From the NCBI GenBank assembly GCA_965220655.1, contig CBDCQO010000007.1:15356-79355 (forward strand): a stretch of 64,000 bases of DNA, given 5' to 3'. The position numbers and the translations under genes were made by a program. Each line of letters opens with the position of its first letter. Within the stretch, counting starts at the first letter, position 1. The notes under the pieces were generated by a model. That model made no database searches and had not been told where the DNA came from. It saw only the letters and a program-made list of their open reading frames with translations. Positions 1,186 through 62,749 of the stretch are shown here, one piece after another. The stretch is from Dehalococcoidia bacterium (GTDB taxonomy: Bacteria; Chloroflexota; Dehalococcoidia; Lucifugimonadales; Australimonadaceae).

Positions 1186-1188
1186 GCC

Positions 1189-1518
1189 ATGTACGAGCAC
1201 GAGCCACCGGCGGATACTGCACACCGGGGAGACGCTGACGGCGTGGCCGGACTCGTCGAGCGTGCCTTTCAGTATCGCGGCGACGTCACCGTGCGCATCG
1301 ACGACGGCAGCACCGTGACAGGCTATCTCTTCAACCGGGATGCGCATGCGAGCGAACCGTTCGTCCAGCTGTTCGAGACACAGACCGGACGCGAGGTGTC
1401 GCTCCCTTACCGCAGCATCACCGGCGTGCTCTTCACCGGGCGTGATGCCGCCGCCGCGGCGGACCAGCGTTTCGAGGCCCTGCAGGTCCGTTCAGGAACA
1501 GAACGCCATGAAGACTGA
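1189..1518 (+). CDS. Small conserved-looking hypothetical protein embedded in the hopanoid cluster
   Basis: 109-aa ORF starting 4 nt after the hpnH stop and overlapping the hpnG start by 11 nt. Third codon positions are G/C-rich. I recognise no family. Confidence 0.5.
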   Translation: MYEHEPPADTAHRGDADGVAGLVERAFQYRGDVTVRIDDGSTVTGYLFNRDAHASEPFVQLFETQTGREVSLPYRSITGVLFTGRDAAAAADQRFEALQVRSGTERHED

Positions 1519-2206
1519 AGCCGCGCTGGCCCCGCTCCTGACTATCGCCCCCACCCAGCGGGAGTTGGGAGGACTCGGTTACGGCAATGCGCGTACCCGC
1601 ACGAGCGTCGTCGGTATCGGACGCGTCGCGGGAGAACAGGTCGCAGCTCTCTTGGATGCCGCGCCGTGTCGGCTGCTGGTCTCGCTGGGATACGCAGGCG
1701 CGCTGGATCCACACCTCCATCCCGGCGACCTCGTGGTGGCGAACGCCTATCTCCACGGAGCAAGCGCGCCGGTCCCCGGCGCCCTGCACACGACCCGTGC
1801 GGCGATGCTGCTGCGACAGGCCGGCATCTCCGCCCTCGAAGGGCCGGTGCTGACCGTGGACGAACCGCTCCTTTCGCCCCGGGCCAAGCGCAGAGCGTTC
1901 CACGGTAGCGGTGCGCTGGTGGTCGACATGGAAGGACGCTGGATCGCGGAAGAGGCAACATCGAGAGGCGTCCCGCTCATCGGCATCCGCGCAGTGCTCG
2001 ACGAGGCCCACTATCCGCTGCCTTCCTTCATCGCAACCATCATCGCGGATGCCGGGCGGCGGGAGTGGGCTCACGCCGTGCGGGCGATGTCGCACCCGTC
2101 AGCGGTCAGGAGCTTCCTTCCGCTGGCGTTGAAATCACGCGGAGCGTCGCGCGCCTTGCAGACGGCCGTGCAGAGCATCCTTCCGGAGCTCGCTCGTCAG
2201 CTCTGA
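1508..2206 (+). CDS. hpnG: Hopanoid-associated phosphorylase (purine nucleoside phosphorylase/MTA nucleosidase fold, HpnG)
   Basis: The internal ATG at 1508 gives a 232-aa protein (MKTEAALAPLL...). PNP_UDP-like motifs are present (LLVSLGYAGALDP, VVDMEG). It sits between hpnH and shc. The upstream part of ORF 1340..2206 is Arg/Ser-rich junk. Confidence 0.8.
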   Translation: MKTEAALAPLLTIAPTQRELGGLGYGNARTRTSVVGIGRVAGEQVAALLDAAPCRLLVSLGYAGALDPHLHPGDLVVANAYLHGASAPVPGALHTTRAAMLLRQAGISALEGPVLTVDEPLLSPRAKRRAFHGSGALVVDMEGRWIAEEATSRGVPLIGIRAVLDEAHYPLPSFIATIIADAGRREWAHAVRAMSHPSAVRSFLPLALKSRGASRALQTAVQSILPELARQL

Positions 2207-2215
2207 GCCGGACCG

Positions 2216-4213
2216 ATGGCGAACCTGGTCGAACAAGGCATGAAGAGCCGCCTCCGCGAAGCACTGAAGCGGACGCAGGACTACTTCTTCCGTACGCAGC
2301 ACGAGGATGGCTACTGGTGGGGGGAGCTGGAGTCCAATCCGACCATGGAGGCGGAGTACATCATGCTCGCGCACTTCATGGGGTCGGACGAGGGCGACCG
2401 CATCCCCCGTGTCGCGGAAGACATCCGGCGCAGACAGTCCGAAGACGGCTCCTGGCGGATGTACTACGGCGCGCCGGGAGACCTGAGCACGTCCATCGAG
2501 TGCTACTTTGCGCTCAAGCTCGCCGGGGACCCGGCCGATGCTCCCCACATGGCGCGGGCGCGCGCCTTCATCCTGGCGCAGGGCGGGGTGCCCCGGGCGC
2601 GGGTATTCACCAAGATATGGCTCGCCCTCTTCGGTCAGTGGGACTGGAAGGGAACGCCGACCATGCCCCCGGACATGATGCTGCTGCCGAAATGGGCGCC
2701 CTTCAATATCTACCGCTTCGCGAGTTGGGCGCGCGCGACGATCGTGCCGATGACCATCATCCTCACGCTTCATCCCACGCGGCCGCCGCGCGAGAGTGCA
2801 TGGGTCATGGAGCTCTACCCGGAAGGCCCCGTCACGTTCACGCTGTCGCGCTGGAGGGCGAAGCCCTTCTCCCTCAAAGGAGGATTCCTGCTCCTGGACA
2901 AGGCGCTCCGCGTCTACTGCAATCTGCCTTTCATCCCCAGGCGGGAACGGGCGCTCGAGGCCGCCGTCGACTGGATCGTCAGCCACCAGGAGGCCGACGG
3001 TTCGTGGGGAGGCATACAGCCGCCCTGGGTCTACTCGCTCATCGCACTCAGTGCCCTCGGGTATCGGCTGGACCATCCGGTCGTCGCAAAGGGGCTGGAG
3101 GGCTTCAGAGAGCACTGGAGCCTCCCGTCGGAGGACGGCGAGGCGCTCAGGGTGCAGGCGTGTCTCTCGCCCGTGTGGGACACGTGCCTCGCCCTGCGCG
3201 GACTCCTCGATTCCGGCGTGCCGCCCGACCATTCCGCCATCCGGCGCGCCGCGTCCTGGCTCATCCGCGAGGAGATACGGGTCAAGGGCGACTGGGCCGT
3301 CTATCGGCCTCATCTCGAACCCAGCGGATGGGCGTTCGAGTTCGACAACGTCCACTATCCGGACATCGACGACTCAGCCATCATCGTGACCGACCTCGCG
3401 CTCGCGCGGATGAACGACGACGCAGGCGAACAGGCGAGGGCGGCATCCGTCGACCGTGCCGTCGCGTGGCTGACGGGCATGCAGAGTTCGAGTGGGGGGT
3501 GGGCCGCGTTCGACTGGAACAACGAGTCCCGCGAGCTGGCGGACATCCCGTTCGCCGACTTCGGCGAGCTCCTGGACCCGCCCAGTGTGGACGTCACCGC
3601 GCACGTGCTGGAGATGTACGGGATACTGGGGTACGGGATGGACCATCCGCCCGTACGCCGGGGCCTGGCATACATATGGGACCAGCAGGAGCACGACGGC
3701 GCGTGGTTCGGACGCTGGGGCGTGAACTACGTCTACGGCACGGGCGCGGTGCTGCCCGCTCTGCAAGCGCTGGGAGTGGACATGACGCAGCCCCGTGTGC
3801 GCCGTGCGGTCGAGTGGCTCCTCGCGCACCAGAACCCGGACGGCGGATGGGGAGAGACCTGCGTCAGCTATCCGGACCCGTCCCTGCGTGGGCAGGGTGA
3901 GAGTACGCCCTCGCAGACGTCATGGGCGCTCATCGCGCTCATCGCGGCGGGTGAAGCGCTCAGCGAGTCCGTCTGGAGAGGCGTCGAGTTCCTCCTCCGG
4001 CGCCAGCAGGCAGACGGAACCTGGGACGAGCCGCAGTTCACGGGGTGCGGTTTCCCCGGTTACGGCCCCGGCAACCAGCCCGAGCGGTACGAACCGCTCG
4101 GCGACCCGAACTCGCAGGGCCCCGAACTGAGTGCTGCGTTCATGATCAACTACCACTTGTATCGCAACTACTTCCCGCTCTGGGCGCTGGGGCGGTACGC
4201 GCAGGCGCTTTAG
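2216..4213 (+). CDS. shc: Squalene-hopene cyclase
   Basis: 665 aa with a DxDD catalytic motif (PDIDDSAII) and multiple QW repeats (QxxDGSW/GGW: QSEDGSWR, QEADGSWGG, QSSSGGWA, QEHDGAWFG, QNPDGGWGE, QQADGTWD). Confidence 0.95.
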   Translation: MANLVEQGMKSRLREALKRTQDYFFRTQHEDGYWWGELESNPTMEAEYIMLAHFMGSDEGDRIPRVAEDIRRRQSEDGSWRMYYGAPGDLSTSIECYFALKLAGDPADAPHMARARAFILAQGGVPRARVFTKIWLALFGQWDWKGTPTMPPDMMLLPKWAPFNIYRFASWARATIVPMTIILTLHPTRPPRESAWVMELYPEGPVTFTLSRWRAKPFSLKGGFLLLDKALRVYCNLPFIPRRERALEAAVDWIVSHQEADGSWGGIQPPWVYSLIALSALGYRLDHPVVAKGLEGFREHWSLPSEDGEALRVQACLSPVWDTCLALRGLLDSGVPPDHSAIRRAASWLIREEIRVKGDWAVYRPHLEPSGWAFEFDNVHYPDIDDSAIIVTDLALARMNDDAGEQARAASVDRAVAWLTGMQSSSGGWAAFDWNNESRELADIPFADFGELLDPPSVDVTAHVLEMYGILGYGMDHPPVRRGLAYIWDQQEHDGAWFGRWGVNYVYGTGAVLPALQALGVDMTQPRVRRAVEWLLAHQNPDGGWGETCVSYPDPSLRGQGESTPSQTSWALIALIAAGEALSESVWRGVEFLLRRQQADGTWDEPQFTGCGFPGYGPGNQPERYEPLGDPNSQGPELSAAFMINYHLYRNYFPLWALGRYAQAL

Positions 4214-25702: not shown

Positions 25703-27034
25703 TCACACACCAAAATCTCCAAGGATGCGGTCTCGGTCAAGCCACCCGTGGTTTACGAGTGTTCTTGTAACCACCCAAGATGATACTTGAAAATACTCAG
25801 CGGCTTCGTCAAAGTTTTCAGAGTCGAGGGATTTCCCGCTGAAGAAGTAGGCCAGCTCATCCCATGGGCAAAGGAACTCTTGGGCGAAAGCGCGTTGGAA
25901 TTTCTGCCGACTGGTGGTAACGTGCGTTGCTGGCATCAAGGGTTCGTCCTGTTGCGCTGCAATATAGTCACCCACCAAACGAGTCAGTGTAAAGCGGCGT
26001 CCATACAGATGACGTTGGTGCAGGGATACGCGAAACCCTTCTTCAGACTTGTCACTGCGTATACCTACAGAGAATGGGGCTCTGTGCATATCATAATGCC
26101 CGCCGCCACTCGGCTCGTCTAATGAGATTCCAAAAATGTCACCTAATGTGTTGCTCTGAATCGGCCCATCCCCCAAACCCCAAACTTGGCGAGCTGTCTT
26201 TGCGGCCTGAACAGCGCGCTGCCATGGAAGTGCATTGGGATCAAGCGACCGCTCGGCGAACCCTTTGCGAATTTCTTGATACTGAGGCGATTGCACTGTC
26301 GATCCGTGCGTCTCGACATCTTCAACTACGTCGCGCAAGTGATTAACAGTCTGATTCCCAGAACCTGCGGCTAATTCATGGATTGCATTAGTGCCGTACC
26401 GGGAGTATTCTCGTCGCAAACCCTCTAACAACCCTTCTGGGGCCTCATCAGGGTCATAGCCAAGACAAGCTTCCAGTTTGCGCCACTGACTGACCTCATG
26501 GTCGTTGCGTTCTTCAACCACTTCATTCCAGAGGGACCCGATATCTGTGTATGACGGATTTGCGACCGCTAGTTTGTCTATCGTGGCGTTGACGAAGTCG
26601 TCTATACCTTGTTCGAAGCTGGACGCCGAGACGAAGTAATGATAATCTCTTGTATAATATATAGGTTCAGCCGCACGCGGAACAGTTGGCGTACCATGGA
26701 CGGAAATAGTGTTCCAATCGCTGATGAATGAAAGATTCGGCCAGACGTACCCTCCACCTGCCGCCCCGATGTTGTGACGCATCTGCCACTCTGGAGTTCG
26801 ACTTCCGCTGTCTGGTTCCCACAGCAAACGCCACCAATTGTCTGCAAACCACATAGAGAGGTGCAGGGCGGAAAGACGGGCAAAATCATGTGAAATCACA
26901 TGCAACAGGTCCGTATTGTGTGTCAAGTTAACATCGTTAACTAGTATGGAAATGTCGGCTTGTGAAGCTCGCTCTGGCTCCTTAGTCCGACCTTTCCTGA
27001 GCCACTTGTACTGGATAGCGAAAGAACTGCTCAT
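25703..27034 (-). CDS. Islet gene B: 443-aa protein with a novel Trp-rich N-terminal region and a C-terminal ImmA/IrrE (Peptidase_M78)-like domain lacking the HExxH zinc site
   Basis: The ATG at 27034 overlaps the gene A stop as ATGA. A TTG at 27046 is an alternative start. The gene sits in a low-GC region. C-terminal segments GRRFTLTRLVGDYI and QRAFAQEFLCPWDEL match the M78 pattern by eye, except for the metal ligands. Confidence 0.75.
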   Translation of the reverse strand: MSSSFAIQYKWLRKGRTKEPERASQADISILVNDVNLTHNTDLLHVISHDFARLSALHLSMWFADNWWRLLWEPDSGSRTPEWQMRHNIGAAGGGYVWPNLSFISDWNTISVHGTPTVPRAAEPIYYTRDYHYFVSASSFEQGIDDFVNATIDKLAVANPSYTDIGSLWNEVVEERNDHEVSQWRKLEACLGYDPDEAPEGLLEGLRREYSRYGTNAIHELAAGSGNQTVNHLRDVVEDVETHGSTVQSPQYQEIRKGFAERSLDPNALPWQRAVQAAKTARQVWGLGDGPIQSNTLGDIFGISLDEPSGGGHYDMHRAPFSVGIRSDKSEEGFRVSLHQRHLYGRRFTLTRLVGDYIAAQQDEPLMPATHVTTSRQKFQRAFAQEFLCPWDELAYFFSGKSLDSENFDEAAEYFQVSSWVVTRTLVNHGWLDRDRILGDFGV

Positions 27035-27465
27035 GGTTGGTTCCAATGCGCCAATACCATACCCCGAAATGGGTCGCTTTGTGCGAGCGGGTATCCATGA
27101 TAGGTTCCTAGACCTTGATTTTCAAGCGATGCTTGGAGAGGTTCTCCATCTTCTGTAACGGCCCACACGTTCTGTGGGAATCCTCCGCGAAGCTGCGTGC
27201 TTATCAACCCTCTCCTAATCCCCTCTCTCAGCAAGTGAAGTGCTTCCTTCTTGGAATGAATGGCTACCGCGTCACACAACGTCTTGTGGGGCCGGGCTGC
27301 TGCGGGTGGATGGAGATTAAAATCTCCTGGTTTTCTCTTGTGAGCCGAGTTGCCGCCGTAATCCACGGTGGCTACAAGTTGGGCGAGTTCACTAGGATCA
27401 CATGCTTGTCGAATTGTCCGGTTGTTGTTGACCCCGCCGTGGGAGCGTCTAGGTCGGCCGCTCAT
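27031..27465 (-). CDS. Islet gene A: 144-aa basic protein of unknown family
   Basis: ATG at 27465 preceded by GGAGAG 7 nt upstream. MSGRPRRSHGG..., HKRKPGDF, TYHGYPLAQSDPF. Low GC. Coupled to gene B by a 4-nt overlap. Confidence 0.7.
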   Translation of the reverse strand: MSGRPRRSHGGVNNNRTIRQACDPSELAQLVATVDYGGNSAHKRKPGDFNLHPPAAARPHKTLCDAVAIHSKKEALHLLREGIRRGLISTQLRGGFPQNVWAVTEDGEPLQASLENQGLGTYHGYPLAQSDPFRGMVLAHWNQP

Positions 27466-47260: not shown

Positions 47261-49068
47261 GGGGATAACCCGGCGGGCAGTCCTACCGGCACGCCGTACT
47301 CGCCGTTCGTGGCGCGCACCTCGTAGCGTGTGCAGATGCCGCTCTCGGAGGCGTCGAAGTCCCAGTACATGTCGTAGGCCGAGATGCGGTGCGTCTCCGC
47401 GTCGAGCGTGATGCCGACGCGGAGCGTCGCGCTGCGCGCCCAAGGTGGGGGAGGGACGTTATCGAGCGTCCCATCGAGGCCGATGTCTCGCTGCGAGGGG
47501 CGGGTGACGCGTATGTCGCCGGGTCCGGCATGGGCGATGACGTTCAGGAGCATCTCGACGGGGTCGGTGAACGCGAGGCGCCAGGGTGTCGCCTCGTAGA
47601 CCTGTTCCAGACTGTCCTTCTTCCACCCGCTGGCGGTCTCCCTCCAGCCCGTCCAGCTGGACGGAAGCGCGTGGGTCAGGATGAGGCCGCCCGAACGACC
47701 ATCGAAGCGTACGAGGGTGGGGTAACCGCGAACGAACCGGCCGAGCGCATGGCTGCCCGAGAACTCGCGCTCGCAGCCCCGGTCGGGCCATCCCCCACGA
47801 ACGTCGAAGCGTGCCGTGCCTGCGTCCAGCATCGCGGCGTAGGCGCGTTCCGCGAGCCGAATGCCGTCGTCACCATGCGCGATTGGAGGAGGATCGAGCA
47901 GTTCGTCGGCGAACACGATGAGCCGTTGGACCTCGGGCATCGCCATGCCGGGCCGGACGAGCGGGTGCGCGTGCAGGCGCAGCAGGGCCTCGTCGGAGTC
48001 GCTGAGCATGGGCAGGCGGAGCGCGGCGTTGACCGACATCACGCTGCGTACGGCGGGACGGTGGTGCATCGCGGCGAGCGCGTGCAGGGCCTCGTGGAGG
48101 GTCGCGTGTACGATCTCATTTTCAGTCAGCGGGGCTTCCTGCGGGCCGTTCAGCCAGACGCTCATGGATGCGCTCGTGATTGCGCCGTCTTCGTAGGATT
48201 CGGGCCCTCCGCAGCCGACCGTGTCCTGGCAGAAGGCGTCGAGGCCGAGGCTCGCGGCCCGCGTCGACGGCACGCCGACGTACGCCTTGAGCGTGGCCTC
48301 CGCTTCCGTCTGCACCCACTCGACGTCGAGGTCCAGCAGGAGGGCGAGGTCGTTCAGCACCTCTTCGAGGATGCGCACGTAGCGCGGGTCGCCGGAGGGG
48401 TCCGCCCAGACGCGCACGGGCGCTTCGGGGTCCCATTTCAGCACGGTGCCGGACGTCCACCCGCCGCACCCGCCGAGGAAGTCGTTCTCGTACGCCGCCT
48501 CGCGGCGCGGCCTGTCGCTGAAGCACTCCCAGACGTCGCGCTCGACGCCGACGATGCGCTCGGGCACGACAACCGAGTTCGACGACGTCCCGTCGTCGAG
48601 CACGGCGCGCAGCTCGGTGCCCATCGGCACGCGCAGGCGGAGGGCTGCCTCCTCGCGGCCGACGCCGCCCGGCAGGACGAGGCCGTCCAGCGGACCGCCG
48701 CAGCCGCTCACCGGTCCGCCGTTCAGCGTGCATCCCACCGTGACGACGGGGGCGTCCTGCGCAGGAGTGTCGCTGTCGTTGCGGAACTCGATCGACAGTT
48801 CGACCTCCGCCCTGCCGTCCTGCCGGTAGCCGAATACCGTCAACAGCGCATCAAGCACGAACACGGGAGTGGGGTCGTCCGGCGTGGGAGTCGCAGTGGC
48901 CGGGACAGGGGTGAACGTGGCGGTTGGCGTGGGAGGAGGCGCGAGCGTCGCGGTAGCAGTGGGCGTCGGCGTTGAATCGCAGGCAACCAGCAGCGCCACC
49001 ATGACGACGGCGCCGGCGAACGCGGTCAGCGCAGGGGCTCCACGCGCGAGGGGGCGCGGGCGGTTCAC
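47257..49068 (-). CDS. Lipoprotein with a metzincin-like zinc-binding motif
   Basis: The GTG at 49068 overlaps the upstream stop as GTGA. Signal and lipobox NRPRPLARGAPALTAFAGAVVMVALLVAC. It has a Pro/Thr linker. HEALHALAAMHH fits HExxHxxxxxH, with Ala in place of the usual metzincin Gly. Confidence 0.7.
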   Translation of the reverse strand: MNRPRPLARGAPALTAFAGAVVMVALLVACDSTPTPTATATLAPPPTPTATFTPVPATATPTPDDPTPVFVLDALLTVFGYRQDGRAEVELSIEFRNDSDTPAQDAPVVTVGCTLNGGPVSGCGGPLDGLVLPGGVGREEAALRLRVPMGTELRAVLDDGTSSNSVVVPERIVGVERDVWECFSDRPRREAAYENDFLGGCGGWTSGTVLKWDPEAPVRVWADPSGDPRYVRILEEVLNDLALLLDLDVEWVQTEAEATLKAYVGVPSTRAASLGLDAFCQDTVGCGGPESYEDGAITSASMSVWLNGPQEAPLTENEIVHATLHEALHALAAMHHRPAVRSVMSVNAALRLPMLSDSDEALLRLHAHPLVRPGMAMPEVQRLIVFADELLDPPPIAHGDDGIRLAERAYAAMLDAGTARFDVRGGWPDRGCEREFSGSHALGRFVRGYPTLVRFDGRSGGLILTHALPSSWTGWRETASGWKKDSLEQVYEATPWRLAFTDPVEMLLNVIAHAGPGDIRVTRPSQRDIGLDGTLDNVPPPPWARSATLRVGITLDAETHRISAYDMYWDFDASESGICTRYEVRATNGEYGVPVGLPAGLSP

Positions 49069-50436
49069 GCCAGGCCGAGCTCCTTCTCCGTGGCGGTGAG
49101 GGAGCGCTCGAAGATGTCGGCAATGTCGTCGATCTCTTCCGCGGTGACGCAGAGCGGAGGCGCGAAGAAGACCTGGCGCGTCGCGCGGGTGTAGAGCCCG
49201 CCGTCCAGCAGGCGCTGGTTGAGGCCTTCGACCGCGCCGGGGGTTTCGGCGAGAGGCGTCTTCGCCTCCTTGTCGGAGACGAGGTCGATGGCGCACATGA
49301 GGCCGAGGCCGCGCACGTCGCCGACCGTGGGGCGGTCGCGGAGCGCTTCGAGCCGTTCGAGGAGGCGCTTGCCCATCCGCTCCGAGTTCCCGATGAGGTC
49401 CTCACGCTCCATGATGTCGACGTTCACGAGGCCCGCCGCGCCGCCGGCGGGGTGTCCGCCGTAGGTGATGCCGTGGCGGTACGTCGTCTCCGGCCCACCC
49501 TGGAACTCCTCGAACACGGCGTCGCGCACGACGCACGCGCCGACGGGGAAGTAGCCGCTGGTGATGCCCTTTGCCATCGTCATCATGTCCGGGACGACGT
49601 TCCAGTGCTCGACGCCGAACCACCTGCCGGTGCGGCCCCAGCCGGTGATGACCTCGTCCGCGATGAGCAGCACGCCGTGGCGGTCGCAGATGTCGCGGAG
49701 CATCGGCCAGTACTCGGGGGCGGGGATGGCGACCCCGGCGGAGAAGGAGACGGGCTCCGCGATGACGGCGGCGACGGTCTCCGGCCCTTCCTCGACGATG
49801 ATGTCCTCGACGGCCTGCGCGCACTTGATGCTGAACTCGGACGGCGAGAGCGATTCGTCCTCGCGGCGGTAGTACGCGGGCTGCGGGGCGGCGAGGAAGT
49901 TGTCAGGCAGGATCTCGCCGTAGCTGGGGCGGTCGAGGACGGCGGAGGTGGAGACGCTGAGCGCGCCGCGCGTCGTGCCGTGGTAGGAGCCCTCGCGCCC
50001 GATGAACTTGCGCCTGCCGGGCTCGCCGCGATTGTAGTGGTAGCGGTAGGCGATCTTCAGGGCGGTCTCGACCGCCTCGGAGCCGCCGCTGGTGAAGTAG
50101 GTGCGGTTGAGATCGCCGGGCGTGTGCGAGGCGACCCTTGGCGGCGAAGCGCACTACGGGCTCCGAGCCGTACTTGAACGTGTTGGCGTAGTGCAGCTTG
50201 CCCAGCTGAGCGGCGACGGCGTCCACGATCTCCTGCCGTCCGTGGCCGACGTTCACGAGCATCAGCCCGGCGATGCCGTCGTAGCCCCACCTGCCGTTGC
50301 CGTCCCTGATCCGGATGCCGTCGCCCTCGTCCATGAACGTGACGCCGTTCTCGGCGAGTTCGCTCCAGTCCTGGGTCGGCATCCAGAGGTGGTTGAGGGC
50401 CGCTTCCTGCAGTTCGTCGTGCGGGTTGGTGGTCAT
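49065..50436 (-). pseudogene. Class III (omega-type) aminotransferase interrupted by a +1 frameshift in a G3 run
   Basis: The N-terminal part (ORF 49903..50436) is good up to ...GSEPVVRFAAK. The frame of ORF 49065..49703 is open upstream and reads VASHTPGDLNRTYFTSGGSEAVETALKIA...AEPV...MLRDICDRHGVLLIADEVITGWGRTG...TMAKGITSGY. The junction is AAG-G-GTC at 50135-50137. Total length is 3n+1. Confidence 0.8.
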
Positions 50437-56823: not shown

Positions 56824-59800
56824 CTACAGCGTGATCTTCTTGTAGAGCTGCGGCAGGCGGCGGGGAAGTTCCATGATGTCCGGCAGCACCTCGTAGTTGA
56901 GGTCGCCGGTCATGGTGCGGAGGTAGTCGTGGCCGTTGCGGTCGACGGTGAGGCAGAAGGGCGTGATGTCCAGGTTGCGCGCCTCCATGAGGGCCATGCG
57001 CGTGTCCTGCACCGCGTACTCCTTCTCGACACCCTCGCGTGAGTACCCGCGGTCCTGCGGGCGGCCGTCGCTGATGACGAACATGAACTTGGTCTTGGCG
57101 TCCACGCCAGCGAGTTTGGAGGTCGCGTGGCGTATGGCCGGGCCCATGCGCGTCGCGTGGAGCGGGGCCACCTTGTCCATGCGGCGCTTCACGCGGTCAG
57201 AGAAGAGCTCCTCGACCTCCTTGATGACGTAGAACTCGACGTTCTCGCGTCCGAAGCCGGAGAAGCCGTAGACGCCGTAGCGGTCGCCGATGGTCTCCAG
57301 CGCATTCATCAGCAGCACCATCGACTCCTTCTCGACGTCGATGATGCGCTTGTAGGGACGGCGGGCGGTCTCGCCTCTGCGGGCGCGGAGCCACGCGGTG
57401 TAGGCGACCGGGTCGCCGGGCGCATTCCAATCGGACTCCCGTGAACTCTCCTCGACCGCTTCAGCGGTCGACGCGCTCATGTCCAGCAGGAAGACGACGG
57501 CGACGTCGCGCTCGTCCTTGTTGCGGCGCCAGTAGATGCGCTCGTCCGGCGTCATCTTGTTCCGCAGGTCGATGAGCGCCTCGATGCCGGCGTCGAGGTC
57601 GACGTCCTCACCCTCCGGCAGGCGCTTCACCTTGCGGTACATCTCCGGGCGGACGGACTCGAACTGGCGCCTGATCTGCTCGATGAGCCCGGCGTAGGAG
57701 TGCATCGTCTCGTTGTAGAAGGCGGTCTCGCCGGAGACGGCGAGGCGCTCCTGTACGATGCACCAGCGCGGGCGGTAGTCGTTGGCGCGGAAGTCCCACT
57801 CGTCGTAGGCGTAGGAGCGCGGCTCCAGGGCTTCGAGCGGCCCGCCTTCCTCGTCGACGTGCGGTATCTGGTTGTAGCCGGAGCCCGCGGGGTTCTGCGG
57901 AGCGTCCGCGCCCATCTCCTTCATCATGTTGGCAGCGACGGTGGTCACCTCGGCGTCGTCCGCGAAGTCGATCTCCGTGGACTCGCGCAGCGCCTGCTCG
58001 AGTTCTGCCTGCGATATCCCCTGCGCGCTCTCGGAGCCGTCTTCTTCGCCGGGCTCGGCCTGCCCCCGCATCTGGGCGAGCAGCTGCACCATCTCCGGCT
58101 TGAAGTCGCCCCGGTAGTCGACGTCGTCCGGCGATTCGTACTCGTCGCCCGACGCCTCTTCCTGCGCTTCCTCGGCCTCAGCGCGCAGGCGCTCGACTAT
58201 CTCTTCGAGCGTCGGTTCGTCGAAGCCGGCGTTGGAGAGGTCGACGTCTTCCCAGTCGTCCAGCGGCACGAATGCGTTGGGCACCTGGGAGAGCGTGTAG
58301 TACATGCGAAGCGCGGCCTCGGCGGAGTCCTCAACCGTGGCGTCGCGGTTGCGCACGCTGCGGAGCAGGCCGGCGAGCTGCCGCGCCTGTGCGGCGTAGG
58401 TGGAAGGGATGCGGGCGCTGCTCTGTCCGAGGCTCTGCCGGATGAGCATCTCCATGAGCGCCTGCTGGGCCGGCATCATCTCGATGGGGCCGCGCGAGGC
58501 GAGGGCGTCGTTCTGTACGCGTTCGTAGCTCGGCGCGAGTCCGCGGTACTGCTCCACGATGCGCTGGTCTATGCGGGCGCTTTCCGTGGTCGAGAAGAGG
58601 TCGGCCGCCATCGCGCGGACCGGGAAGAGGTCGAAGAACGAGGCGACTTCGGTCGTGCCCGGAGTCGCGCCGAGACCCTCCGCTATGCCCTCACGGTAGT
58701 CGTTGAACCCTGCCGAGGGCGCGTGGAAGTCGAAGTCGAAGCTCTGGAACTCCAGGTGCCCCACCTGGTGCGTGGTGACGACCTTGAGCCATGCGAAGTT
58801 CTCGCTCTTCGTGTCGCGCAGGTCGACCGTGGGGGGCAGGAAGACGCTCTTGCCGTCGGTCGTGGCGAACTCCACGGAGACCCAGCCGATGTTGCGGTGC
58901 GTGATGTCGGTCGATTCCTGCAGTTCGACCTCGGTGCCGGCGAGCGCGTTGGAGTACATGCGGAGGAGTCCGTGCACCTTCTCCAATTCGATGCTGGACG
59001 AGAGCTGGTCGAGCAGCGTTTCCGCGCGGGCGGACTCCAGCCGGAAGTAGGCGATGCCCGCGTCCGGGTTCTCCTTCAGGAACTCGAGGCCGCGCCCGAA
59101 CCAGGTGTCCAGCTGCGCGGGGCTGATGCGGTCGAGCACGTTGGGCGCGGTGCGCAGGAAGGCGCTGACGGCCTCGGCGGAGGTGTCGGCGAGGTCTTCG
59201 GCGCGCTCCAGCACCATCGTCTGCAGCTCCTGGGGGAGCAGCCCGAGCGACTGCGCGCTCTCCACCATGAAGGCGGAGACGTTGCCGAGCCCCTGGCGTG
59301 CGAGCCGTTCGCTGAGCGCGAAGTAGCGCGGGCGCAGGCGGCGGTCAACGCTGTTGCCGACACGGGTCGCGGCCTCGAACGAGCCGCGCACCTCGCGCCA
59401 GCTCGTCTCCGCGAGCACTTTGGCGAGTGAGATCAGCTCCTCGCGCTCGCTGACGGCGGGCAGCACGCGCTGCCCGAGCACGAGCGCCTCGGCGGCGAGG
59501 TCGTAGGAGCGGCTCGCGAGCGTCTGCACGAGTGAGACGAACAGCTGCAGCTCGTGGAAGTTGACCTGCTGCACGAGTTCGTCGCTCACGTCGAAGAAGC
59601 GCGCCGCGAGGCTGGACGATTTCCAGGTGCCCTTGGAGAGCCCGCGTCCGAGCCCGGCCCATCCGGCGATGTGGCGCGGGGCGAGGGTGGGGAGGACACG
59701 CGGGCTGGCGCGGAAGAACGACGCCGCGATGACGGGCGCCTCAGCGGTGAGTTCGATGCCGCTTTCGGCCCACCGCTCGAACTGGGTGAAGCCGATGGTC

Positions 59801-60015
59801 TGCACGACCTGCGGCGATGCCTTGAAGTACTCCGTGGCTGCTTCCCATGCGCGGGGGCCCTGCGATGCGATACGGACGCCCTGCTGCGCCCAGCGCAGGG
59901 CAGGAGCGGGGCCCAGTGCGTCGGCCACCTCGTCGGCGACCGCTTCGTAGGCGGAGATGAGAGCAGACGGGTGCTTCTTCAGCTCCTCGATGACGCTGTC
60001 GTGCTCGTTCGTCAC
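56824..60015 (-). CDS. CbbO/NorD-like von Willebrand factor A protein, unusually long (1063 aa)
   Basis: The GTG at 60015 lies 5 nt after GGAGAAGGAG and overlaps the Nudix stop as GTGA. The C-terminal VWA has a MIDAS motif (VVFLLDMSAST) and ISDGRPQD. The long helical N-terminal region resembles CbbO/NorD. The upstream 161 codons of ORF 56824..60498 are an out-of-frame artefact over the Nudix gene. Confidence 0.8.
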   Translation of the reverse strand: MTNEHDSVIEELKKHPSALISAYEAVADEVADALGPAPALRWAQQGVRIASQGPRAWEAATEYFKASPQVVQTIGFTQFERWAESGIELTAEAPVIAASFFRASPRVLPTLAPRHIAGWAGLGRGLSKGTWKSSSLAARFFDVSDELVQQVNFHELQLFVSLVQTLASRSYDLAAEALVLGQRVLPAVSEREELISLAKVLAETSWREVRGSFEAATRVGNSVDRRLRPRYFALSERLARQGLGNVSAFMVESAQSLGLLPQELQTMVLERAEDLADTSAEAVSAFLRTAPNVLDRISPAQLDTWFGRGLEFLKENPDAGIAYFRLESARAETLLDQLSSSIELEKVHGLLRMYSNALAGTEVELQESTDITHRNIGWVSVEFATTDGKSVFLPPTVDLRDTKSENFAWLKVVTTHQVGHLEFQSFDFDFHAPSAGFNDYREGIAEGLGATPGTTEVASFFDLFPVRAMAADLFSTTESARIDQRIVEQYRGLAPSYERVQNDALASRGPIEMMPAQQALMEMLIRQSLGQSSARIPSTYAAQARQLAGLLRSVRNRDATVEDSAEAALRMYYTLSQVPNAFVPLDDWEDVDLSNAGFDEPTLEEIVERLRAEAEEAQEEASGDEYESPDDVDYRGDFKPEMVQLLAQMRGQAEPGEEDGSESAQGISQAELEQALRESTEIDFADDAEVTTVAANMMKEMGADAPQNPAGSGYNQIPHVDEEGGPLEALEPRSYAYDEWDFRANDYRPRWCIVQERLAVSGETAFYNETMHSYAGLIEQIRRQFESVRPEMYRKVKRLPEGEDVDLDAGIEALIDLRNKMTPDERIYWRRNKDERDVAVVFLLDMSASTAEAVEESSRESDWNAPGDPVAYTAWLRARRGETARRPYKRIIDVEKESMVLLMNALETIGDRYGVYGFSGFGRENVEFYVIKEVEELFSDRVKRRMDKVAPLHATRMGPAIRHATSKLAGVDAKTKFMFVISDGRPQDRGYSREGVEKEYAVQDTRMALMEARNLDITPFCLTVDRNGHDYLRTMTGDLNYEVLPDIMELPRRLPQLYKKITL

Positions 60016-60659
60016 GCCGTCTCCTTCTCCTGCTCCGCATCTTCGGGGCGCAGGTCCCGCAGCAGGTCGAGCAGTTGCGCGAGGATCCAGGCCGTCGCGC
60101 CGAATACGAGGTTGGGGCCGTGCACGTACGCCTTGCGCTGCAGCAGGCTGCCGTCCGGCTGGAGCCTTGCCTCGTGGCGTTCCGCGGCGTCGGTCAGCAG
60201 ATGGTCGAGCGGTATCTCGATGATCTCGGCGACCTCGTTCTCGTCGACCTCGAACCGGTACGGATGCGGAATGACCCCGACCGTGGACCAGACGAGGTAG
60301 TCCGTTCGAGTAAGGACAGGTTCCAGCGAGCCGACGACGTCCACGTCCCCGGGGGCGATGCCCATCTCTTCGTGCGCCTCGCGCAGGGCGCAAGCGAGCA
60401 TGTCCGGGTCGGTCGGTTCGTACTTGCCGCCCGGGAAGGCGATCTCGCCCTGGTGCATGCCTACGAACTGCGAGCGCACGTTGAGGATGACGTGCCACTC
60501 GCCGTCGTGATAATGCAGCGGGATGAGGACGGCTGCAGGCCGCGCGCCGTCCGCGTTGGTCGGAGCGGAGGGCTCGTGGTCGGCGAGCGCCGCGCGCAGC
60601 GCCTCGATGCGGGAGGCTGCTTCCGCCGGTATAGGCGTTGTCTGCAAGGTGGCCGCCAT
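60012..60659 (-). CDS. Nudix hydrolase with a CoA-pyrophosphatase (NudL/NUDT7-type) signature
   Basis: The ATG at 60659 shares one base with the upstream TAA (TAATG). The Nudix box is GGKYEPTDPDMLACALREAHEEMGI. It is preceded by VRSQFVGMHQGEIAFPGG. Confidence 0.8.
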   Translation of the reverse strand: MAATLQTTPIPAEAASRIEALRAALADHEPSAPTNADGARPAAVLIPLHYHDGEWHVILNVRSQFVGMHQGEIAFPGGKYEPTDPDMLACALREAHEEMGIAPGDVDVVGSLEPVLTRTDYLVWSTVGVIPHPYRFEVDENEVAEIIEIPLDHLLTDAAERHEARLQPDGSLLQRKAYVHGPNLVFGATAWILAQLLDLLRDLRPEDAEQEKETA

Positions 60660-61528
60660 TACGGGAAGATGGAGGTCACGATCTCCATCACGCTCGCCTG
60701 CGTCTCGTGGTCGTCGGTAAGGCCCCACACGACGGCGACCTCACACGCCCTGCGCGGTGCGATGCCGTGTTCGATGAGCTTGCCGGCGTAGATGAGCAGG
60801 CGCGTGCTGACGCCTTCCTGCAGCCCCTGGCCGATGAGGTTGCGTATCTTCTCTCCGAGCAGCGCGAGCTGCTGGGCCGTGGTGCGGTCGACGCCGCTCT
60901 CGTGCTCGATGATTGGCCCTTCGAGGTCGCGCGGCGGGAAGTCGAACTCGATGGCGATGAAGCGCTGGCGCGTCGAGTGCTTCAGGTCTTTCAGCGCGCT
61001 CTGGTAGCCGGGGTTGTAGGAGATGACGAGCAGGAAGTTGGGGTGCGACTCCAGCACCTCGCCGATCTTCTCGATGTGCAGCAGGCGGCGGTGGTCGGAG
61101 AGCGGGTGGATGAGCACGGTAGTGTCCTTCCGCGCCTCGACGACCTCGTCGAGGTAGCAGATGCCGCCGTGCTTGACCGCACGGGTGAGGGGGCCGTCTA
61201 TCCAGCGCGTGCCTTCCGGTTCGAGCAGGTAGCGCCCGACGAGGTCGCTCGCGGTAAGGTCCTCGTGGCAGGCGACGGTGACGAGGGGCGACATCTGTTC
61301 GGCGCGCCCGTCGCGCTTGCGGGCCTGGTTCAGGCGCCACGACATGTACTCGACGAAACGCGTCTTGCCGGAGCCGGTCGGGCCCTTGAGGAGGATGGGG
61401 ACGCGCTGCGCGTAGGCCGCCTCGAAGATGTCGATCTCGTCGGCAACTTCGAGGTAGAAGGGTTCCTTATCGATGAAGTACTCTTCGATGTTGTGCTGCT
61501 GGTAAAGCTGGGTCGCCTGGTTTGCCAT
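60659..61528 (-). CDS. CbbQ/NirQ/NorQ-type MoxR AAA+ ATPase
   Basis: ATG at 61528 ([18 protein letters not shown]...). Walker A is [11 protein letters not shown] and Walker B is [25 protein letters not shown] segment is typical of CbbQ/NorQ. Confidence 0.85.
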
Positions 61529-61536
61529 GTGTCGCA

Positions 61537-62136
61537 CTACCTTACGGACAGGATTCTCTCTTCCCACAGTCCCTGAACGCGCGCCCGCAGGTCTTCCGGC
61601 GAACCCGAGTTCTCGATGATAGCGTCTGCCTTGCTCAGCGCGGCCTCGGCCCCGCTCTGCGCCTCCGCGCGCCGCCGCACGTCTTCGGGAGTCAGCCCCC
61701 GCTGCTGCAGGCGTTCCAGCACCGTTGCCGGGGGCGCGGAAACGACCCACACCTCGTCCGCGAGGTCGTCCCACTTCGCCTGGTAGAGGAGTGCTGCGTC
61801 GATGACGACGGCGTGCTCGCCGTTCTGCCGGTGCTGCTCGATCGCCCGTGCCACCTGCTGGCGGATGAGCGGGTGTATCGCGGCGTTCAGCCAGGCGAGC
61901 GCCTGGGGGTTGGCGAAAACGAGCTCCCCGAGCCGGGCGCGGTCTATCTCCTGGTCGTCGTTCAGTATGCCGCTGCTGAATATCTCGACGAGACGCCTCC
62001 AGCCGATGGTCCCTTTCGCGTAGGCGCGGTGTCCCTCTGCATCGGCGTCGATAACCACTGCGCCGAGGCTCGCAAGGATGCTCGCGGCCTCACTCTTGCC
62101 AGTGCCGATCCCGCCCGTCAGCCCGATGACCCGCAC
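61537..62136 (-). CDS. coaE: Dephospho-CoA kinase
   Basis: [14 protein letters not shown]-loop at the N-terminus. I chose the GTG at 62136. The ATG at 62181 is an alternative start. The stop lies 8 nt before the cbbQ-like start. Confidence 0.8.
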
Positions 62137-62236
62137 GTTGCCCCGGAGCCTCCGTTTCCGCGCTGCACCCTCCCGGTGCATAGCGCAATGGCTGAGTTTA
62201 GCACGGAACACGAGAGCGGCATAGAAGGGGAGTGCT

Positions 62237-62506
62237 TTAAGGGAAGAAGCGGTAGATGTCGCTGCGATGTAGGAATCTGACCAGTACCACCACACTCCCT
62301 TGAACGGCGAGGCCGAGGCGGTAATCGCCTATCCTGATCCGGTAGTGAGGGTCTCCCGTAGCCGTGATCCTTGCGATGCCCGGGATTGCAGCAACGTTCG
62401 TTGCCGCTTCGATGCTTTCGGTCGTTCGCTCTACCCTGCGGCGTATGCTCGCGCTGCGAACACGTTTCAGATCGCGGATGAAGCTAGGCCTGGTCTCGGT
62501 CTCCAT
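62237..62506 (-). CDS. Type II toxin, RelE/ParE superfamily
   Basis: 89 aa. The C-terminal YRIRIGDYRLGLAVQGSVVVLVRFLHRSDIYR is the classic RelE/ParE pattern. Confidence 0.8.
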   Translation of the reverse strand: METETRPSFIRDLKRVRSASIRRRVERTTESIEAATNVAAIPGIARITATGDPHYRIRIGDYRLGLAVQGSVVVLVRFLHRSDIYRFFP

Positions 62507-62654
62507 CCTTCTCCCGCAGCACTTTCCTGGCCTCTTCTATGCTGACGGGCTCTTCCTTCAGCCCCTCTGCTATCGCCCGCGACAGGGCGGCATCTTCTGC
62601 TTCTACGCTGTCGTGTACCTGGTCTGCGTAAGCGGCCTTCTTTCGGAGTTCCAT
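62484..62654 (-). CDS. Putative cognate antitoxin (56 aa, acidic)
   Basis: ATG at 62654 preceded by GGAGGA. It overlaps the toxin start by 23 nt. I recognise no family. Confidence 0.55.
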   Translation of the reverse strand: MELRKKAAYADQVHDSVEAEDAALSRAIAEGLKEEPVSIEEARKVLREKDGDRDQA

Positions 62655-62749
62655 GCGGCTTCCTCCATTTGTATAGCCAGTGTAGCACGAGGGTAAGGCG
62701 AGAGACCCTCGCGCCACTCCCCGCACTGTCCCTGTAGAATCCGGGGAAG

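Follow-up and report, generated by a model that had tools for sequence, protein, structure and literature searches.

A conserved coaE–Q–Nudix–O operon encoding a putative NorQD/CbbQO-type remodeller

The genes coaE, Q, Nudix and O, encoding dephospho-CoA kinase, a MoxR-type ATPase, a Nudix hydrolase and a long VWA protein, respectively, are a conserved operon in the window (the whole 64-kb stretch of DNA that was analyzed). To judge from the gene content of related loci, the core of the system is Q together with the long O. By analogy with NorQD and CbbQO, we tentatively propose that the operon specifies an undescribed remodeller of the same type, which acts on a housekeeping client and in this clade would be coupled to the hydrolysis of CoA-type nucleotides; we give this proposal somewhat less than an even chance. 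Its link to CoA is plausible.

Operon structure and conservation

All four genes were located on the minus strand in the order coaE–Q–Nudix–O, as read directly from the sequence of the window (Table 1). The coaE stop codon TAG (61539–61537) is separated by an 8 nt spacer from the Q ATG at 61528. The Q stop codon TAA (60661–60659) overlaps the Nudix ATG (60659–60657) as TAATG, while the Nudix stop codon TGA (60014–60012) overlaps the O start codon GTG (60015–60013) as GTGA. This reading confirmed the genes, junctions and motifs given in the initial annotation; all quoted motifs were recovered, among them RSQFVGMHQGEIAFPGG. The start of coaE was ambiguous (ATG at 62181 or GTG at 62136), with relatives favouring GTG.

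Table 1. Features of the coaE–Q–Nudix–O operon (coordinates in the window).
Feature	Coordinates	Strand	Evidence
coaE, dephospho-CoA kinase, first operon gene	61537..62181	–	PF01121 and TIGR00152 matches
Q, CbbQ/NorQ-clade MoxR AAA+ ATPase, 289 aa	60659..61528	–	AAA_5 and CbbQ_C, PDB matches
Nudix hydrolase, CoA-diphosphatase clade, 215 aa	60012..60659	–	NUDIX domain, NCBIfam, PDB matches
O, NorD-type VWA adaptor, 1063 aa, GTG start	56824..60015	–	Weak Pfam VWA, NorD match
O residues 1–340, family-specific all-helical repeat region	58996..60015	–	AF2, 19 helices
O residues ~400–620, central helical domain	58156..58818	–	Invariant columns, confident predicted model
O residues ~621–729, acidic low-confidence linker	57829..58155	–	pLDDT < 50
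O residues ~790–836, predicted finger	57508..57648	–	Alignment to NorD
O residues 837–1063, VWA with intact MIDAS	56824..57507	–	VWA match, NorD alignment

Conservation was surveyed in the best 80 of at least 584 species genomes with an O relative, all of them species-level Dehalococcoidia, SAR202 or Chloroflexota. The order coaE–Q–Nudix–O was present in 78 of these 80 loci, including ones with O identity as low as 47%; one exception carried an insertion (L014), and the other had no Q and coaE nearby (L018). The Q–Nudix–O order also recurred in metagenome loci and is not unique to this contig, a possibility left open initially. Median gaps over about 80 related loci were 5 nt (coaE/Q), 14 nt (Q/Nudix) and –4 nt (Nudix/O); thus, the tight packing noted at the outset is not due to chance, and the spacing suggests translational coupling of the four genes. 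Q was directly preceded by coaE in 79 related loci. The literature searched contained no description of a Nudix gene inserted between the genes for a MoxR ATPase and its partner VWA protein.

Comparison with more distant lineages revealed that coaE is joined to Q and the long O in Chloroflexota branches only. In at least 16 loci, including those of MAGs labelled Deltaproteobacteria and Pseudomonadota, Q and the long O occurred without Nudix, phosphoesterase or coaE; therefore, the core machine does not require the hydrolase or coaE in cis. Nudix as an obligatory machine part was rejected on the same grounds, as Q and the long O lack it in many lineages. In a sister branch, a non-homologous calcineurin-like phosphoesterase replaces Nudix just upstream of O: four loci had the arrangement coaE–Q–(...)–Metallophos_2–O, one of them with a TGATG stop/start overlap into O. 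This replacement suggests a functional tie between O and a phosphohydrolase and lends some support to the analogy with an activase accompanied by an inhibitor hydrolase.

The cassette occupies a conserved place in the core genome. The window, with MutS2 at its right edge, and three related loci (L001–L003) had MutS2, NifU, CinA, AdoMet_dc, arginase, DsbH and AI-2E neighbours in common; another locus adjoins EF-Tu and ribosomal genes (L089). This wholly housekeeping neighbourhood is also what would be expected if the gene order were merely inherited within the class, Q–O being an orphan chaperone and coaE and Nudix being CoA-homeostasis genes with no functional coupling to it. The occurrence of core Q–O pairs without coaE or Nudix, of coaE–Q–O without a hydrolase (L086, L120 and L126) and of Q–Nudix–O without coaE (L142) agrees with such an explanation. 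However, order and near-zero spacing are kept down to about 40% O identity, the Nudix gene is placed between the two partner genes, and drift alone does not easily explain a non-homologous phosphoesterase abutting O in the same slot. We consider inherited synteny without coupling rather unlikely.

Protein components of the system

Q matched AAA_5 (1.3e-28) and CbbQ_C (2.4e-28) in Pfam. Its 58% identity to solved CbbQ (5c3c, E 2.9e-102) substantiated the earlier assignment to true CbbQ/NorQ-clade MoxR ATPases; the match to NorQ (9qhd) had an E value of 1.3e-87. Walker A (GPTGSGKT, residues 49–56) and Walker B (CYLDEV) were identified, as well as the helix-2-insert (H2i) motif, GRXLL/IXXXXT as defined in PMC13036017. 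Relative to CbbQ, an insert of 12 aa follows the Walker A helix; its length varies from 12 to 35 aa across the family.

CoaE matched PF01121 (1.7e-44) and the TIGR00152 equivalog (160.6 bits, cutoff 65.55). The gene is probably the sole, essential copy of the cell, and its place in the operon could be a matter of expression only. A ParE/RelB-like toxin–antitoxin pair adjoins coaE in this window only.

Within the Nudix superfamily, the CoA diphosphatases group together as one clade (PMC5389931). The NUDIX domain of the third gene product was matched in Pfam (1.7e-11), and all five of its PDB matches were CoA diphosphatases: three NUDT7 constructs (the best with 1.1e-22), Nudix hydrolase 11 and D. 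radiodurans 1nqz. The protein retains an intact catalytic RExxEE box. Of the CoA-pyrophosphatase signature initially ascribed to this protein, the grouping with CoA diphosphatases and the RS...G...FPGG part stood, whereas the central Arg of NudL/NUDT7 did not: the family motif reads RSx3[G/E/S]xHxGx3FPGG, and the best NCBIfam match, CoA pyrophosphatase PRK10707, scored 104 bits, under the cutoff of 134. The substrate may thus be other than CoA itself.

O is long compared with the solved NorD chains (638 and 646 aa), as had been remarked, but ordinary within its own family, in which more than 120 full-length homologues span 1057–1128 aa. Its sole Pfam match was a weak C-terminal VWA. The PDB profile search matched residues 730–1061 to NorD 9qhd (E 1.7e-36) and NorD VWA chains were the top Foldseek matches, in agreement with the C-terminal VWA/MIDAS reported previously. 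Pfam, PDB profile and Foldseek searches matched no family or solved structure to residues 1 to ~720, which are confined to the O family. Residues 1–340, modelled by AF2 with pLDDT ~90, contain recurring W..G / FFRASP-like units and are missing from a ~730-aa paralogue family. In the central domain (pTM 0.75, pLDDT > 90 over most of its length), THQVGHLEF (H416, Q417, E422) and FxxxExxRxD are invariant in the aligned Dehalococcoidia members, while H420 is not kept in distant ones; neither a PDB profile match nor a fold match with E < 1 was obtained for this domain.

Ahead of the VWA lies an acidic linker similar to those of ChlD and CobT. It varies in length and sequence across the alignment and corresponds by position to the NorD linker, which is essential for function (PMC13036017). 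The finger region aligns with residues ~403–448 of P. denitrificans NorD, the finger as defined in PMC13036017, and contains the conserved columns P790, E791, R794, G802, D806, W829, R831 and N832. The VWA part was aligned to NorD residues 476–643. Its MIDAS comprises DMSAST (residues 845–850; 57466–57483), completed by T955 and D983, with D845, S847, S849, T955 and D983 invariant; an insert of ~35 aa after the MIDAS strand varies or is missing among distant members. AF2 modelled the linker, finger and VWA with low confidence. The finger region, intact MIDAS and NorD-like C-terminus identify O, at the sequence level, as a NorD-type partner of Q.

As NorD is the closest characterised relative of O, and cNOR receives its non-haem iron through the action of NorQD (PMC9976466, PMC13036017), Q–O might load metal in the manner of NorQD, CoxDE and Mg/Co chelatases into a conserved metalloenzyme encoded elsewhere, e.g., a respiratory oxidase, with the CoA genes being incidental. 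The intact MIDAS and the H-x3-H-x-E motif, invariant in the central domain of Dehalococcoidia members, fit this role. Nevertheless, the His motif is not kept in distant long-O proteins, the N-terminal and central domains are not similar to the NorD N-terminal domain, neither the window nor any locus with annotated neighbours had NOR or oxidase genes nearby, and the hydrolase slot is left unexplained. Metal insertion is therefore improbable.

Client and proposed mechanism

Rubisco, nor and cox genes were not found in the 64-kb window. As initially observed, no Rubisco or NO reductase lies nearby, which holds for the flanks of relatives as well; Rubisco and cNOR were rejected as clients. The first ACAD gene starts at 56757, 66 nt 3' of O, and domain search confirmed the two ACADs and two CoA_transf_3 proteins described downstream. 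These same-strand genes had been put forward as clients of Q–O, with Nudix and CoaE processing a released CoA ligand. The adjacency is repeated in relatives whose O is at least 79% identical; however, it is missing from every locus under 79%, several close relatives have ~830 bp between O and the first ACAD, and the genes are part of a lineage-specific block of ~27.5 kb between O and CinA which other lineages, L001–L003 among them, lack. The acyl-CoA dehydrogenases and family-III CoA-transferases are thus very improbable clients. Given the conserved core-genome synteny of the cassette, the most probable client is a broadly conserved cytoplasmic enzyme whose gene lies elsewhere.

MoxR–VWA pairs occur in some conflict systems, and the toxin–antitoxin pair lies beside coaE; yet that pair is confined to this window, PADLOC gave no match for O, Nudix or CoaE and only weak generic AAA matches for Q, and the cassette is stably placed in the core genome at every locus surveyed, with neither variable presence among close strains nor a defence-island location seen there, so that an anti-phage role is scarcely credible.

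For the favoured remodeller, the features of Q–O contact, judged against PMC13036017, are present: the H2i motif in Q, and the finger-homologous stretch and conserved C-terminus in O. By inference from NorQD and CbbQO, a Q hexamer would engage one O via a finger-in-pore contact and the O C-terminus, and ATP hydrolysis would twist or stretch O. O would hold the client with its MIDAS and with the N-terminal domains peculiar to its family. NorD and CbbO have mutually unrelated N-terminal domains, to which target selection is attributed (PMC9976466). The client would thereby be opened, letting a cofactor or metal enter or a blocking ligand leave. More speculatively, in Dehalococcoidia a nucleotide-diphosphate hydrolase would be made together with O, namely Nudix here and the calcineurin-like phosphoesterase in the sister branch. 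It would most likely destroy a CoA-type or ADP-containing ligand, released by or kept out of remodelling, and CoaE in the same transcript might tie the system to CoA supply.

Comparison with known systems

The best NCBIfam and PDB relatives of Nudix were E. coli NudL, NUDT7/NUDT8/NUDT19 and D. radiodurans DR1184. The spacing from FPGG to the RExxEE box is identical to that of NUDT7; in contrast to these CoA pyrophosphatases, all members of the cassette family have G, E or S in place of the signature Arg. CoxD/CoxE/CoxF, BchI/BchD, CobS/CobT and RavA/ViaA follow a similar logic, an AAA+ ring with a VWA/MIDAS adaptor maturing or modulating a specific enzyme, but belong to other AAA+ subfamilies, while Q has CbbQ_C; cox, bch, cob and frd genes were not nearby.

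NorQ/NorD (PDB 9qh4–9qhg; PMC9976466, PMC13036017) are likewise encoded by an adjacent gene pair and resemble Q and O (residues 730–1063) at the E values given above. Both NorD and O consist of an N-terminal domain, a long disordered linker and a VWA, and both have the YxEWDxR hairpin, a finger region, the MIDAS motif DxSxS and the C-terminal LPxxY tail; NorQ and Q share the H2i motif GRxLLxxxxT. O, however, is ~420 aa longer than NorD, and its first ~720 residues resemble the NorD N-terminal domain neither in sequence profile nor in fold. Q has Ser in place of the P-loop Cys that serves the disulfide switch of NorQ, norCB is absent, and the Q and O genes are separated by Nudix, with coaE upstream.

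The CbbQ/CbbO Rubisco activase (PDB 5c3c, 6l1q) includes the closest relative of Q and is the same MoxR–VWA partnership. It differs in that Rubisco genes are not in the window or related loci and in lacking the insert after the Walker A helix. Conceptually, it offers an analogy for the proposed system: remodelling frees an inhibitor that resembles a nucleotide or sugar phosphate from its tight binding, and a separate hydrolase would then degrade it.

Operon structure and identity of the encoded proteins

The cassette is encoded on the minus strand in the order coaE–Q–Nudix–O, where Q is a CbbQ/NorQ-type MoxR ATPase and O its NorD-type VWA partner of 1063 aa. As read from the sequence, 8 nt lie between the coaE stop codon TAG and the Q start; Q and Nudix share the stop/start overlap TAATG, Nudix and O the stop/start overlap GTGA, and a gap of 66 nt separates O from the first acyl-CoA dehydrogenase (ACAD) gene. 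The coordinates, junctions and motifs quoted in the initial annotation, including RSQFVGMHQGEIAFPGG, were all located in the sequence. Two minor corrections to it concern gene bounds: coaE may begin at the GTG at 62136 instead of the ATG at 62181, and Nudix spans 60012–60659. CoaE was identified as dephospho-CoA kinase at the level of an equivalog HMM (TIGR00152). A scan of the minus strand for promoters and terminators inside the operon, uninformative for this phylum, found none, and an Rfam search of the 50–64 kb region for riboswitches or other RNA elements gave no match.

Coordinates of the cassette, of other features of the window and of features in related loci (L-numbers)
Feature	Sequence	Position	Strand	Matches and remarks
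coaE	window	61537–62181	−	ATG start, possibly GTG at 62136; PF01121, 1.7e-44; TIGR00152, 160.6 bits (cutoff 65.55)
coaE stop TAG	window	61539–61537	−	Q start at 61528
Q	window	60659–61528	−	AAA_5 and CbbQ_C
Walker A of Q	window	61361–61384	−	GPTGSGKT
TAATG	window	60661–60657	−	overlap of Q and Nudix
Nudix	window	60012–60659	−	NUDIX; best NCBIfam match CoA pyrophosphatase PRK10707, 104 bits (cutoff 134)
GTGA	window	60015–60012	−	overlap of Nudix and O
O	window	56824–60015	−	weak C-terminal VWA as the sole profile match
Two ACADs, two family-III CoA-transferases	window	downstream of O		identified by profile searches
Block between O and CinA	window	~29.2–56.8 kb		~27.5 kb
Class-III aminotransferase, two ORFs	window	49065–49703; 49903–50436	−	C-terminal and N-terminal parts of PF00202
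Low-GC bin	window	26–28 kb		GC 0.548 (~0.67 elsewhere)
447-aa ORF	window	25703–27046		no Pfam match
Hopanoid-type cluster	window	163–4213	+	radical SAM with DUF3463, PNP_UDP_1 phosphorylase-family protein, squalene-hopene cyclase
ParE-toxin/RelB-like antitoxin pair	window	62237–62726	−	between MutS2 and coaE
MutS2	window	62750 to window end	+	
Metallophos_2 in the Nudix slot	L124	7225–7866		
Metallophos_2 in the Nudix slot	L129	7120–7716		
Metallophos_2 in the Nudix slot	L148	7154–7822		cyclophilin-type PPIase also between Q and phosphoesterase
Metallophos_2 in the Nudix slot	L154	7189–7767		cyclophilin-type PPIase and SDR also between Q and phosphoesterase
Tandem ~300-aa ORFs, at least 7	L086	10184–17171		directly after a Nudix-less coaE–Q–O

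Q consists of PF07728 (AAA_5, 1.3e-28) followed by PF08406 (CbbQ/NirQ/NorQ C-terminal domain, 2.4e-28), both over the cutoff, and Walker A, Walker B and the helix-2-insert motif GRXLL/IXXXXT were all read in its translation. It matched the crystallised CbbQ of Halothiobacillus (5c3c) with an E-value of 2.9e-102 and 58% identity; the NorQ proteins solved in 2026 were nearly as close (1.3e-87). After its Walker A helix, Q has 12 residues inserted relative to CbbQ; among family members, this insert differs in length. Judged by sequence, Q is a member of the CbbQ/NorQ (CGN) subfamily of MoxR AAA+ ATPases, and a hexameric state and partner-modulated ATPase activity are predicted for it. In NorQ, the helix-2-insert motif GRxLLxxxxT grips the finger of NorD (PMC13036017). 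The Walker A sequence of this Q differs from the family consensus GPTGCGKT by a serine; this lineage thus lacks the cysteine of the inhibitory P-loop disulfide of NorQ (PMC13036017).

Residues 730–1063 of O are homologous to NorD (9qhd, E 1.7e-36), with the span 730–1061 aligned to NorD 350–643. Common to both proteins are the YxEWDxR hairpin, a finger-aligned stretch (O ~790–836, corresponding to the finger 403–448 of Paracoccus denitrificans NorD), an intact MIDAS and the C-terminal tail; the MIDAS residues (DxSxS...T...D) D845, S847, S849, T955 and D983 are invariant. In a Foldseek search with the AlphaFold model of O, confidence of which is low for the linker, the finger and parts of the VWA domain, NorD VWA chains ranked first. 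With its VWA/MIDAS domain, pre-VWA segment and finger, O is by homology a NorD/CbbO-type VWA partner protein, and all sequence features needed for a finger-in-pore contact between Q and O are present. Public annotations call it "hypothetical", "VWA domain-containing" or, by transfer, "NorD".

The first ~720 residues of O had no Pfam match. The AlphaFold model predicts with confidence a helical repeat (residues 1–340) and a helical domain (~400–620), the latter followed by an acidic disordered linker. A profile of residues 330–640 matched nothing in the PDB, and NorD was missing from its results even at E up to 10; a separate model of the central region (pTM 0.75) gave no fold match with E < 1, the full model matched VWA folds only, and neither model matched NorD's N-terminal domain. 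A phmmer comparison of the O N-terminus with NorD yielded insignificant fragments only. Homology of the N-terminal and central domains to the NorD N-terminal domain was rejected for lack of PDB-profile and fold matches; a zincin-like protease was rejected on the same lack of matches and because HQxxHxE is not kept in distant members. O lacks the N-terminal homology of NorD proper and, in the window and the annotated flanks of related loci, also the norCB neighbourhood of NorD proper and the association with Rubisco genes of CbbO proper. NorD and CbbO have mutually unrelated N-terminal domains, which are thought to choose the target (PMC9976466). Since the first ~720 residues of O are likewise unlike known families, O looks like a third kind of adaptor, judged by its model and by the comparison of its N-terminus with NorD.

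CoA diphosphatases convert CoA or acyl-CoA to 3',5'-ADP and (acyl-)4'-phosphopantetheine and carry the CoA signature LLTxR[SA]x3Rx3Gx3FPGG upstream of the Nudix box. The corresponding segment of the Nudix protein, ILNVRSQFVGMHQGEIAFPGG, contains the R-S, G and FPGG of this signature, with its central Arg replaced by G; across the Nudix proteins of the cassette family, this position is E, G or S. The Nudix box itself, GGKYEPTDPDMLACALREAHEEMGI, has spacing identical to that of NUDT7, and RExxEE is kept in all family members. The top NCBIfam match, PRK10707 (7.4e-30), stayed under the curated family cutoff, and all five PDB matches were CoA diphosphatases—three NUDT7 constructs, Arabidopsis Nudix hydrolase 11 and 1nqz from Deinococcus radiodurans. 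CoA diphosphatases form a single clade within the Nudix superfamily (PMC5389931). The relationship to these enzymes and the intact RExxEE, yet with the central Arg replaced, make a CoA-like substrate likely but not certain.

Conservation of the cassette and the wider family of O

In a scan with one genome per species, at least 584 genomes contained a relative of O. The best 80 of them were all MAGs labelled Dehalococcoidia, SAR202 or Chloroflexota, and coaE–Q–Nudix–O was kept in 78 of these 80 loci, down to 47% O identity; one of the two others has an insertion between Q and Nudix, and the second is without nearby Q and coaE. The order proposed from this contig is thus not confined to it. Median intergenic distances were 5 nt for coaE–Q, 14 nt for Q–Nudix and −4 nt for Nudix–O. 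The cassette is a conserved operon, and its spacing suggests translational coupling. Q was found upstream of O in ~80 loci from genomes and, where the upstream context was sufficient, in most of those from metagenomes; a single small gene separates the two in the cassette clade. The description of O as a "giant" does not hold: more than 120 full-length homologues are of ~1060–1130 aa, so that its length is the family norm. Scanning of longer homologues for fusions with Nudix or CoaE revealed VWA domains alone.

The cassette is located in conserved core-genome synteny, with MutS2 and NifU on one side and CinA, AdoMet decarboxylase, arginase, a DsbH-like thioredoxin and an AI-2E transporter on the other; in one lineage, it adjoins the cluster of EF-Tu and ribosomal protein genes. 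The Q–O pair is part of the core genome in a bacterial class that is large, abundant worldwide and for the most part uncultured (SAR202 and other Dehalococcoidia). The ParE/RelB pair was present in none of the 170 related loci fetched, which indicates a recent insertion adjoining the presumed promoter region of the operon.

A search of 1.84 billion cluster representatives with the O profile retrieved 1986 clusters at E up to 1e-30; contexts of distant members were sampled by exact look-ups and a metagenome scan, and taxon labels are sparse. O HMM scores in the cassette clade were mostly at least 1300 (788 in L089). A sister group with ~41–42% O identity, Chloroflexi/Dehalococcoidia where named, had coaE–Q–O or, in four loci, coaE–Q–(cyclophilin/SDR)–Metallophos_2–O; the gene directly upstream of O in the latter encodes a calcineurin-like phosphoesterase (PF12850, 2.4e-27), the stop of which overlaps with the O start in TGATG in one locus. 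Locus L086 (~32% O identity) had coaE–Q–O. Three of the tandem ORFs that follow it were scanned without a Pfam match, and the precomputed annotation gives no Pfam family for any. More distant long O proteins (scores 340–575) occurred with Q alone in at least 16 loci. Some Q–O pairs without coaE or hydrolase come from MAGs with the labels Deltaproteobacteria and Pseudomonadota (clusters P0247 and P0239; loci L091, L092 and L138), so that the adaptor family extends beyond Chloroflexota. No Q adjoined some of the long O genes, of varied score or identity, nor the genes of an O paralogue family of ~700–740 aa (typically ~730 aa; L084, L085, L105–L107) in which the N-terminal helical repeat is missing. 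In L084 and L085, the neighbours of the paralogue are a thioredoxin-reductase-like gene and sulfate-assimilation genes (PAPS reductase, NIR_SIR, TauE).

By these layered arrangements, Q and long O are the ancestral unit. It was joined by coaE within Chloroflexota, and the slot just upstream of O was filled afterwards by a phosphohydrolase, the folds in the two sister branches being unrelated. Some metallophosphoesterases, among them LpxH, UshA and ADPRibase-Mn, are able to cut the nucleoside-diphosphate-X bonds that Nudix enzymes cut; the replacement would therefore be consistent with analogous chemistry.

Neighbouring genes and candidate clients

ACAD and CoA-transferase genes followed O only where O identity was at least 79%, and in those relatives an extra ~830 bp often lay between O and the first ACAD. 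They form the O-proximal end of the ~27.5-kb block that separates O from CinA; in L001–L003 this block is absent and CinA lies less than 1.5 kb beyond the O stop. The block encodes an ABC transporter, three Rieske/LigXa_C oxygenases, a NIR_SIR (sulfite/nitrite) reductase homologue, two SDRs, a class II aldolase, an amidohydrolase, aminotransferases, two CoA-transferases and two ACADs, and looks like a catabolic island. With this distribution, the adjacency to O is a lineage-specific insertion outside the conserved unit. The split of the class-III aminotransferase into two ORFs could reflect a frameshift, with the gene now a pseudogene, or a mistake in the assembly. Elsewhere in the window, the low-GC bin coincides with the 447-aa ORF and may be foreign DNA; a hopanoid-type cluster lies near the left end.

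Genes for Rubisco, NO reductase or cox were found neither in the 64-kb window nor, for the related loci that were examined, in their annotated flanks, in agreement with the initial report of no Rubisco or NO reductase nearby. A Rubisco, nor or cox locus just outside the window was also rejected: MutS2 occupies the right edge, beyond which a relative with 99% identity has NifU. We failed to find a client gene among the neighbour ORFs clustered in 80 metagenome loci: with crude ORF calling, in which antisense ORFs of high-GC DNA contaminate the clusters, the recurrent clusters inspected were housekeeping genes (CinA, enolase, phosphoglycerate mutase, M16 peptidase) or such artefacts.

Proposed function and alternatives

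By analogy with NorQD and CbbQO, a Q hexamer would hold one O via its finger and C-terminus, O being bound to the client by its MIDAS together with the N-terminal region peculiar to its family. ATP-driven rotation would stretch the linker between the VWA and N-terminal domains and open the client, so that a cofactor or metal could enter or a blocking ligand leave. More weakly, the co-translated hydrolase may clear a CoA-type nucleotide that is released by remodelling or has to be kept off the client, and CoaE in the same transcript may tie expression to CoA supply. The remodeller part of this scheme is very probably correct, while the CoA-ligand part is tentative; taken together, remodelling plus hydrolysis of a CoA-type ligand has a little less than an even chance.

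The strongest alternative, though somewhat unlikely, is inherited housekeeping synteny with no functional coupling; Q–O pairs lacking both extra genes fit it, but the replacement in the hydrolase slot and the spacing, still tight at ~40% identity, speak against it. Less probable still is a NorQD-like metal-insertion chaperone for a metalloenzyme encoded far off, to which the CoA genes would be incidental: O has its closest relative in NorD, but neither NO reductase nor an oxidase is nearby. The ACADs and CoA-transferases, proposed as clients in the initial annotation, are contradicted by synteny and very improbable. A defence system is the least credible of all, given the stable core-genome location and a PADLOC search in which O, Nudix and CoaE had no match and Q had weak generic AAA matches to RtcR models only.

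In the Q–O unit, very probably a MoxR/VWA remodeller, both the architecture of the adaptor and the partnership within the operon are new. In the literature searched, no paper described CbbQ/NorQ with Nudix or a MoxR ATPase with CoaE, and in our analysis this was the sole MoxR/VWA pair found to share its operon with genes both for a CoA kinase and for a CoA-type nucleotide hydrolase. To our knowledge, MoxR/VWA pairs are widespread and clients are known for few of them: Rubisco, cNOR, CO dehydrogenase, fumarate reductase and chelatases. Two unrelated enzyme families in the hydrolase slot of sister clades provide a testable handle on the ligand or cofactor step served. Should the CoA link fail, Q–O would still be a clearly delimited orphan chaperone whose client merits a search; should it hold, the logic of an activase with an inhibitor-clearing enzyme, which is not known outside Rubisco, would reach CoA-dependent metabolism. 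A bolder and unlikely version makes the cassette a third functional class of CbbQO/NorQD type: an activase that serves a housekeeping enzyme dependent on CoA or inhibited by it, the remodelling cycle being obligatorily paired with a dedicated hydrolase of the released CoA-type nucleotide (Nudix here, metallophosphoesterase in the sister clade), with CoaE rebalancing the CoA pool. If true, it would do in the CoA world what Rubisco activase does together with an inhibitor phosphatase.
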